64,000 nt of DNA from Escherichia coli (lineage in GTDB: Bacteria; Pseudomonadota; Gammaproteobacteria; Enterobacterales; Enterobacteriaceae), in assembly GCF_050920415.1 (NCBI RefSeq), contig NZ_CP169309.1. One strand, 5' to 3'. Every line of letters begins with the position of its first letter. Position 1 is the first letter of the stretch. The position numbers and the translations under genes are program-made. Shown piece by piece: positions 57,101-60,938 of this stretch. The notes below the pieces were generated by a model, which was not told the origin of the DNA, ran no database searches, and saw only the letters and a list, made by a program, of their open reading frames with translations.

Positions 57101-58047
57101 TGCCTCGCTTGAGGCGGATAAAAATATTCACCAGTCGGTTACGGTTACCGTGGTCCCAAACAGGGAACAATCGGTAATTATTTTGAATGCCGGATCGGGC
57201 AGTACGATTGCTAACAATACAGATACCGTTACCCTGACTGCCAGTGTGAAAGATGTTTATGGACACTCACTACCGGATGAGGATGTGAAATTTACCTTGC
57301 CAGCATCTATGACAGGGAACTTCACGCTAAGTAGTGACACCGCTCGCACCGATTCAAACGGCAATGCCGTGGTCACATTGCGAGGCACAAAAGCGGGTGA
57401 GTTTACAGTGACGGCGACACTGAGCAGAAATAATACCAGTGCTAATCAGCTAGTCTATTTTATTGGGGATACAAGCAGCGCGCAGCTCCAGCCGCTGACT
57501 GCCTCATTAAATACCATAGTTGCTGGCAACAGTACGGGGAGTACCCTGACAGCAACGATCCTGGACGCTTACCAAAATCCGCTTAAAGACCAACAGGTCA
57601 CTTTCCAGAGTAACGATGTCACACTAAGCGGAACAGAAGTCACCACCAATACGCAGGGTCAAGCGACGGTAATAATGACCAGCAATATTGCCGGACAACA
57701 TAACGTAGTGGTGAGCCGGAAAGCGCAATCATCCGATAATAAAACGTTTAGTTTATCAGTGCTCCCGGATGAAAGTTCGGCGAAGATAATAAGTATAACC
57801 GGAGCCGAAAAAACGATAATGGTTGGCGAAAACATCACGCTACGAATACACGTACAGGATGCGTTTAATAACGTCATAGCCGGTCAACGCGTCAGATTAA
57901 GTGCGCTGCCAACAGCTAACATTACGATAGACGATACGGCTTACACCGATAATAACTAGACTGGCCCCCTGAATCTCCAGACAACCAGTATCACTTAAAT
58001 AAGTGATAGTCTTAATACTAGTTTTTAGACTAGTCATTGGAGAACAG

Positions 58048-58413
58048 ATGATTGATGTCTTAGGGCCGGAGAAACGCAGACGGCGTACCACACAGGAAAA
58101 GATCGCAATTGTTCAGCAGAGCTTTGAACCGGGGATGACGGTCTCCCTCGTTGCCCGGCAACATGGTGTAGCAGCCAGCCAGTTATTTCTCTGGCGTAAG
58201 CAATACCAGGAAGGAAGTCTTACTGCTGTCGCCGCCGGAGAACAGGTTGTTCCTGCCTCTGAACTTGCTGCCGCCATGAAGCAGATTAAAGAACTCCAGC
58301 GCCTGCTCGGCAAGAAAACGATGGAAAATGAACTCCTCAAAGAAGCCGTTGAATATGGACGGGCAAAAAAGTGGATAGCGCACGCGCCCTTATTGCCCGG
58401 GGATGGGGAGTAA
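58048..58413 (+). CDS. insC: IS2 transposase OrfA (InsC)
   Basis: 121 aa ([26 protein letters not shown]...) identical in pattern to IS2 InsC. Confidence 0.9.
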
Positions 58414-59276
58414 GCTTAGTCAGCCGTTGTCTCCGGGTGTCGCGTGCGCAGTTGCACGTCATTCTCAGACGAACCGATGACTGGATGGATGGCCGCCGCA
58501 GTCGTCACACTGATGATACGGATGTGCTTCTCCGTATACACCATGTTATCGGAGAGCTGCCCACGTATGGTTATCGTCGGGTATGGGCGCTGCTTCGCAG
58601 ACAGGCAGAACTTGATGGTATGCCTGCGATCAATGCCAAACGTGTTTACCGGATCATGCGCCAGAATGCGCTGTTGCTTGAGCGAAAACCTGCTGTACCG
58701 CCATCGAAACGGGCACATACAGGCAGAGTGGCCGTGAAAGAAAGCAATCAGCGATGGTGCTCTGACGGGTTCGAGTTCTGCTGTGATAACGGAGAGAGAC
58801 TGCGTGTCACGTTCGCGCTGGACTGCTGTGATCGTGAGGCACTGCACTGGGCGGTGACTACTGGCGGCTTCAACAGTGAAACAGTACAGGACGTCATGCT
58901 GGGAGCGGTGGAACGCCGCTTCGGCAACGATCTTCCGTCGTCTCCAGTGGAGTGGCTGACGGATAATGGTTCATGCTACCGGGCTAATGAAACACGCCAG
59001 TTCGCCCGGATGTTGGGACTTGAACCGAAGAACACGGCGGTGCGGAGTCCGGAGAGTAACGGAATAGCAGAGAGCTTCGTGAAAACGATAAAGCGTGACT
59101 ACATCAGTATCATGCCCAAACCAGACGGGTTAACGGCAGCAAAGAACCTTGCAGAGGCGTTCGAGCATTATAACGAATGGCATCCGCATAGTGCGCTGGG
59201 TTATCGCTCGCCACGGGAATATCTGCGGCAGCGGGCTTGTAATGGGTTAAGTGATAACAGATGTCTGGAAATATAG
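58371..59276 (+). CDS. insD: IS2 transposase OrfB (InsD, DDE domain)
   Basis: 301 aa ([23 protein letters not shown]...) matching IS2 InsD; overlaps insC as expected for programmed frameshifting. Confidence 0.9.
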
Positions 59277-60938
59277 GGGCAAATCCACTAACGGCTATGC
59301 GTACGTTAACCTTATCAGCACCCAGCCTGGGGTCTATCAGGTGACAGCATCGCTGGACAATAACAGTAGTCGTAAAGTTGACGTGAGTGTGGCAAAGGGC
59401 AAACTCGAGTTAACATCATCGAAGCCAGAAACCACGGTCCATAACAGTGAAGGTATTACACTGACCGCAACGGCAAGAAATATTCAGGATGAATTGATGC
59501 CGGGGCAAATTATCACCTTTAGCGTAACACCTGATGGTGCAACGCTAAGCAATACAGGGGAAATCCTGACTGATCAGTCAGGTCAGGCCAAAGTGACGCT
59601 GACCAGTGACAAAGTCAATGTATATACCGTTACGGCCACAATGGGCAAAGACGTTCCCGTTCAGAGCCAGGTGACGGTTGCGGTTAAGGCTGATGCTACA
59701 ACGGCACATGTTGTGAGTGTAGTGGCTTCTCCTGACACCATAATCGCCGACGGGGTTGATAGCAGCACCATCACTTCACGAGTAGAAGATGATTATGGAT
59801 TCCCGGTTGAAGGTGTCGACGTTAGTTACAGCTTAGACACCAAAGGCAGCCCGGTGATTAATAATCCAACTACGCGTACCGATCAGTCCGGGCAAGTCAC
59901 GGCGACAATAACAGGTACATTGGCAGAAGCTCTAATTGTCAATGTTCAGGTCCCTGGCACAGTCCACAAATCCGCAGCCATTACATTGATTCCTGGTACG
60001 GCAGATGAAAGTAAATCAACATTGAAATCTAGCGTTAGCTCTTTTATGGCTGACTTCCAGGAGAGCGCGACACTTACGTTAATATTGCAAGACAAGTACG
60101 GTAACCCGATAGTGACGTCTGATCATCTGGAATTTGTCCAGTCAGGTGCCTACGTGAACCTCCTGAAGTTGAGCAATATTGATTACAGCCAAAGAAATTA
60201 CGGCGAGTACACCGTCACTGTCACTGGCGGCGTAGAGGGCAGAGCGACTCTCATTCCTATGCTGAACGGTGTTCATCAAGCAAACTTAAGCATATCACTG
60301 GATCTTGTCCGCTCAATAAAAGACATGCACGGTCATGTAACAGTCAACAACCATACCTTCACAACGGCTACATTCCCCAGTGAAGGTTTTATAGGGGCGT
60401 ACTACACACTTAATGATGACAACTTTGAAGCGGGTAAAACCGTTAGTGATTATATGTTCACAAGTTCACAGAGTTGGGTGTCTGTCGATGCTTCAGGTAA
60501 AGTTTCTTTCACAAATACCGGCGACCAAACTTCAGTCGTAATAAGCGCTGTTCCCAGACAAGGAGGTACAACCTACCAGACATTAATTAAGCTGAAAGGC
60601 TGGTGGGTGAATCATGGGAATCAAACCAATATCTGGCTAACTGCCAATGCGTTCTGCAACGCGAAAAGTGATGGATATAATCTTCCTGGCGTCGCACATT
60701 TAACGTCTGGCGAAAACAAACGCACGTTGGGATCGCTATATGGTGAGTGGGGGAACGTTGGGGAGTTTTCCAGTGATTCGCAATTTACCGCGGGTGCTTA
60801 CTGGACCAATCAACAGGATGATTACAATAGTCACGTCTATGTGCAGATGCTGACGGGCAGGATTGGAAGCGACGCAGATTCCAGCGCTCAACTAACTGCC
60901 TGCCGTAAATCACTTTAATTTCTGAAGTAGTTATTAAA

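Follow-up and report, generated by a model that had tools for sequence, protein, structure and literature searches.

In the window, the 64,000-nt stretch of Escherichia coli DNA analyzed here, a canonical IS2 element interrupts the adhesin gene iatD, and one base of its target duplication, the C that directly follows its right end, departs from the target sequence. Our best reading, held at about even odds, is that this C, at position 59288, was introduced during integration rather than by later mutation, and we infer both the source of the base and the repair step that would have retained it. The identity and boundaries of the element, the original target, the five extra bases and the identity of the deviant base are established. 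As the preliminary description had reported, the duplication within 57952–59292, a span comprising the IS2 element and both flanking pentamers, is imperfect: read directly, the pentamers are ATAAC on the left and CTAAC on the right, and the first base is their sole difference. Random pentamers would match at four of five positions with p ~0.016, but coincidental agreement is not what is in question. The features on which the analysis rests are as follows.

57952–57956, + strand: ATAAC, the left target-duplication copy, unchanged from the uninterrupted allele
59288–59292, + strand: right copy of the target duplication, CTAAC, with four of its five bases duplicated
59288, + strand: the anomalous base, a C in place of the target's A, immediately next to the right inverted repeat (IRR)
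57957–59287, + strand: IS2, its transposase genes oriented like iatD, identical (0 mismatches) to the IS2 copies in L053 and L054
57957–57998, + strand: left inverted repeat (IRL, 42 bp), outer end 5'-TAGACTGG, repeat length from PMC3299598
59247–59287, + strand: IRR (41 bp), with a CA-3' end (...CAAATCCA), repeat length from PMC3299598
58048–58413, + strand: orfA (InsC, 121 aa), with an HTH_Tnp_1 domain (Pfam, 1.8e-19)
58371–59276, + strand: orfB frame (InsD, 301 aa), with the rve/DDE integrase core (Pfam rve, 1.1e-18) and also rve_3 and HTH_21
58365–58371, + strand: AAAAAAG slippery motif in the orfA/orfB overlap, the predicted −1 frameshift site for OrfAB
54342–57959, + strand: 5' fragment of iatD (1205 codons), with the IAT_beta barrel and Ig-like repeats, its stop being the TAG of IRL
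59293–60918, + strand: 3' fragment of iatD (541 codons), with Big_1/Invasin_D3 repeats and the C-terminal tip; a GTG within IRR, at 59251, lies in the same frame

Read from its sequence, the segment at 57957–59287 is a complete canonical member of IS2 (IS3 family), exactly 1331 bp in length. It starts at 57957 with TAGACTGGCCCCC... (longer reading TAGACTGGCCCCCTGAATCTCC) and ends at 59287 with ...GGGGCAAATCCA (longer reading ...ATATAGGGGCAAATCCA); each end sequence occurs once within the 64,000-nt window, where a chance occurrence is not expected. A repeat search of the window returned the terminal inverted repeat I1, with arms at 57966–57998 and 59247–59279. The two overlapping ORFs encode an HTH-containing OrfA and a DDE/rve-containing OrfB, with the A6G motif in their overlap; in the IS3 family, a −1 frameshift at such a motif joins OrfA and OrfB into the OrfAB transposase. 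Among IS2 copies in public contigs, two are identical to the window copy, and about two-thirds of the 95 compared copies of 1331 bp carry at most eight mismatches to it, a near-identity to reference copies that places the element in IS2 together with its ORFs and motif. Its ends are a 42-bp IRL with a TA end and a 41-bp IRR with a CA-3' end, the imperfect inverted repeats described for IS2 (PMC3299598). The window copy thus resembles the IS2 of E. coli in its 1331-bp length, the TAGACTGG start of IRL, the CA-3' end of IRR, both ORFs, the A6G motif, 100% identity to other copies and the addition of five bases at the target, and differs from it solely in the first base of the right-hand duplicate (C for A).

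The flanks belong to iatD, which encodes an inverse autotransporter (Pfam IAT_beta, 4e-107; Big_1, 9.7e-80; Invasin_D3 repeats) and is annotated by RefSeq in 639 genomes. The N-terminal IAT_beta barrel, the tandem Ig-like (Big_1/Invasin_D3) domains and the gene order yjiJ-iatD-kptA identify the gene. An artificial empty site, built from both flanks, matched intact iatD genes at 100% identity. E. coli MFDS1022581 (NZ_CP169399.1) carries an uninterrupted gene of 1746 codons, which RefSeq annotates as iatD, and matches the window at 100% over the 21,957 bp upstream of the insertion, and we compared 66 kb of this genome base by base with the window (aligned part NZ_CP169399.1 4483832–4546495; L121 and L122). 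With IS2 and five bases removed, the window is colinear with MFDS1022581 over 62,664 bp, with 0 indels and 4 substitutions, at window positions 6830, 10788, 17291 and 24363, all more than 33 kb from IS2; three of these are A/G differences and one is G/T. MFDS1022581 is a food isolate from South Korea.

The target site in MFDS1022581 reads ...GATAATAAC followed by GGCTATG... (also written ...CCGATAATAAC followed by GGCTATG..., and at greater length as TACACCGATAATAAC followed by GGCTATGCG), so that the target pentamer before insertion was ATAAC. Alignment with an uninterrupted adhesin allele, the check that the preliminary description had proposed, thereby identifies the first base of the right copy as the deviant one: because the intact allele reads ATAAC, the left copy is original and the C at 59288 is the departure. 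The length of the insertion carries a second constraint. Relative to the empty allele the window has 1336 additional bases, which equal the 1331 bp of the element plus five, so a five-base segment was added rather than four; these five added bases resemble the target, and four of the five are identical to it.

The insertion is, judged from the divergence of its surroundings, very young, since the nearest relative without it differs by 4 substitutions in 62,664 bp. At this divergence the number of later substitutions expected in the 10 duplicated bases is at most 10 × 4/62,664, or 6e-4. The MFDS1022581 chromosome carries 21 IS2 right ends, from which the lineage appears to be in a phase of IS2 expansion. 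The same iatD::IS2 insertion was found in none of 5,426 complete E. coli genomes, which together hold roughly 11,700 IS2 right ends, and a search with the exact junction sequence, its variable base set to N, had 0 matches in species-representative genomes and metagenome contigs.

To place the imperfect duplication among other IS2 insertions, we surveyed viral contigs, species-representative genomes, metagenomes and assemblies (loci L001–L455) and kept full IS2 copies with both flanks, which gave 182 copies and 158 distinct flank pairs. Perfect 5-bp duplications flanked 107 of the 158 distinct insertions. Of the 112 insertions with a recognizable duplication in their flanks, the perfect ones make up 107. 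Approximately 45 of the 158 (~30%) have unrelated flanking pentamers, consistent with recombination between copies or adjacent deletions. Two examples with 4-bp matches, L126 and L385, join regions that are contiguous in no E. coli genome; we rejected them as 4-bp duplications and treat them as recombinant copies.

Single-mismatch duplications occurred four times in the survey (L398, L289/L305, L433 and L370). In L398 the mismatch lies at position 4 and a widespread empty allele agrees with the left copy, which marks it, on comparison of the alleles, as a polymorphism or an ordinary change of later date. A position-3 mismatch (pentamers GAATC/GAGTC) is common to L289/L305 and L433, which occupy one site in a serine-aspartate-repeat gene (GAGTCNGAATC repeats). 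The elements at L289/L305 and L433 lie at this position in opposite orientations and in different assemblies, a 1332-bp variant versus one of 1331 bp. The position-1 mismatch of L370, examined as a look-alike of the window junction, proved ambiguous: homology to the sole homologue found breaks exactly at the IS, and the copy may have arisen by recombination, its 4-bp match being coincidental.

Comparison with empty sites verified two anomalies, both confined to the IS-proximal base. L113 has a true 4-bp duplication, TGAA: once joined, its flanks match many genomes at 100% over 165 bp. In L016 the empty site reads ..GTAGATGGATTT.. (longer reading ...GTGTAGATGGATTTATC...), the left flank reads ..GATG and then AC directly before IRL, and the right flank reads GATGG; the IRL-proximal duplication base G is replaced by two foreign bases, AC, the size of a 2-bp spacer. 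This empty site is found at 100% identity in 59 E. coli genomes. Junction-proximal irregularities of IS2 thus amount to roughly 2 per 100 insertions, well above the 6e-4 expected from later substitution at the window site. The L113 element lies at 6802–8133, beside a DinI-like prophage gene, and that of L016 (reverse strand) lies at 219–1550 of the reversed locus, next to a gogB remnant.

The transposition pathway of IS2 offers a source for such bases. The first step joins IRR, through its 3' end, to a point one base (~90%) or two bases (~10%) outside IRL, producing a minicircle in which the abutted ends are separated by a 1–2 bp spacer of donor-flank DNA; Step II cleaves both ends at their 3' termini, and these attack the target at points five bases apart (PMC3299598). 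For a non-target nucleotide that abuts an IS2 end, no source is known other than this minicircle junction, as modeled by Lewis and Grindley (PMC3299598), and the usual spacer of 1 bp, sometimes 2, matches the one foreign base in the window and the two in L016. In that model the spacer is discarded on integration, whereas we infer its retention in the product.

We propose that a standard IS2 copy recently transposed into iatD by a normal 5-bp staggered cut at ATAAC, and that the C at 59288 would not be target DNA, would have been absent beforehand and would have entered during integration. Its likely source would be the 1-bp spacer of the minicircle junction, copied from the donor-site DNA flanking IRL. 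From the chemistry of cleavage, the non-transferred strand would be left with the spacer nucleotide as a 1-nt 5' flap at each end; where IRR meets the target, gap repair would then fill four of the five nucleotides and the flap would be ligated as the fifth. After replication, one daughter would read IRR-C-TAAC, with the left copy remaining ATAAC. The same outcome could follow from a 4-bp stagger combined with cleavage at IRR one nucleotide too far, which would place the spacer on the transferred strand. By the same logic, a 2-nt flap at IRL could give rise to L016.

Entry of the C during integration is favored by its position, because the deviant base touches the IS end, the sole position open to a spacer or flap. 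A C is also a plausible spacer base, given that C lies immediately 5' of IRL in 21 of 62 perfect insertions (an earlier tally, of 62 perfect duplications). The main weakness of an integration origin is that the 158 surveyed insertions hold no second verified example of a same-length substitution next to IRR, and the rate of this exact form may therefore be far below 1%. Further points against it are that imprecise cleavage is less expected at IRR than at IRL, since IRR has the canonical CA-3' end, and that 5' flaps are normally removed by Pol I. Internal single mismatches in older insertions (position 4 in L398; position 3 in L289/L433) also count against it, as they imply that mutation of duplications is real. 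As a general statement, that IS2 integration occasionally carries the 1–2 bp minicircle spacer into the new site and overwrites the IS-proximal base of one duplication copy, we put the proposal forward tentatively and rate it at somewhat less than an even chance.

The strongest alternative is that insertion produced a perfect ATAAC duplication and that an A:T>C:G transversion afterwards turned the initial A of the right copy into C. No reading is simpler, and it calls for nothing unusual in the chemistry of transposition; the disrupted iatD is under no selection at the site, and ordinary mismatched duplications do occur among natural IS2 copies (at position 4 in L398, relative to the common empty allele, and at position 3 in L289/L305/L433). 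The preliminary description had listed such a mutation among three possibilities, and it is possible, but the near-identity of the intact relative speaks against it: the insertion is so young that the bound of ~6e-4 substitutions in 10 duplicated bases applies. The change would moreover have had to fall on one of the two IS-abutting positions among the ten (p = 0.2 under random placement). The types of the other differences show no sign of an A:T>C:G mutator, and a mutT-like mutator was rejected on the same four differences (three A/G and one G/T). On balance we consider a later mutation unlikely, though it is a rival to be taken seriously.

A second alternative places the error in the assembly, the C having been introduced in assembly or polishing where unique sequence begins beyond a multi-copy repeat and the real duplication being a perfect ATAAC. 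Repeat edges are prone to such errors, the lineage is rich in this repeat (21 IS2 right ends on the relative's chromosome), and no second genome with the junction was found that could confirm the base. The assembly nevertheless looks accurate, with 0 indels and 4 substitutions over 62.7 kb relative to MFDS1022581 in the rest of the window, and reads spanning the junction contain unique flank and should map correctly. Cross-mapped reads would also not favor C, because the commonest base after IRR is G (G 95, C 65, A 52 and T 18 in other IS2 copies). We judge a consensus error improbable.

Other boundaries or another target (an IS one base longer or shifted, or a CTAAC target with a mutated left copy) would yield an exact 5-bp duplication and were an a priori possibility, of which the preliminary description had raised the offset boundaries, with nothing further in their favor, but this reading is refuted by the intact allele and we give it almost no credence: the empty allele is ATAAC and not CTAAC, no intact allele accounting for an exact 5-bp duplication with other boundaries was obtained, a +1 shift gives TAACT/TAACG and a −1 shift AATAA/ACTAA, and the ends TAGACTGG... 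and ...CAAATCCA are placed as in the 107 perfect-duplication copies, enclosing 1331 bp identical to two other elements. The two remaining possibilities from the preliminary description, a later point mutation and a 4-bp TAAC duplication accompanied by one extra base, survive, and a single sequence does not separate them. Weighed together, an origin during integration takes about half of our belief, later mutation a minor share and an assembly error a smaller one, and the remainder is kept for causes that we did not consider.

Target duplications of variable length are also known from the IS3 family and other IS elements. IS186 has 6/7-bp duplication cores and IS1 duplicates 8/9 bp (PMC5009759), and these variable-length duplications indicate that the target stagger of IS elements is not absolutely fixed, as does the verified 4-bp IS2 duplication of L113. 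In the window, a 4-bp stagger alone would add 1335 bp versus the 1336 observed, so an extra base is still needed. A mutation-accumulation study reconstructed 58 de novo IS2 duplications, and its text carries no length spectrum for IS2. Keyword literature searches on imperfect IS2 duplications yielded nothing relevant, and we did not find spacer retention after integration stated in the accessible literature, which does describe the spacer itself. The IS2 element, the adhesin host gene and imperfect or variable duplications of insertion sequences in general are already known, and the sole point that is possibly new is the survival of a minicircle spacer into the integrated product.

For genome biology the case is of little consequence, being ordinary biology with a small mechanistic footnote, and annotation pipelines that accept only perfect duplications of the target would get this genuine simple insertion wrong. 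Were the spacer indeed retained, IS2 junctions would serve as a natural barcode for the resident donor copy and would hold an in vivo footprint of 5'-flap processing after strand transfer, and hence of the fate of the non-transferred strand; donor copy and strand fate are otherwise invisible in genome sequences.

For the host gene, a non-essential adhesin gene, the event is a recent and routine knock-out by IS2. The insertion falls between codons 1205 and 1206, splitting the gene after codon 1205 of 1746. Called proteins on record include neither the truncated N-terminal fragment of IatD nor the C-terminal fragment. IRL opens with TAG, which forms an in-frame stop for the truncated iatD, and a 1205-aa IatD fragment that retains the beta-barrel as its anchor, together with roughly half of the Ig-like repeats, could still be made.
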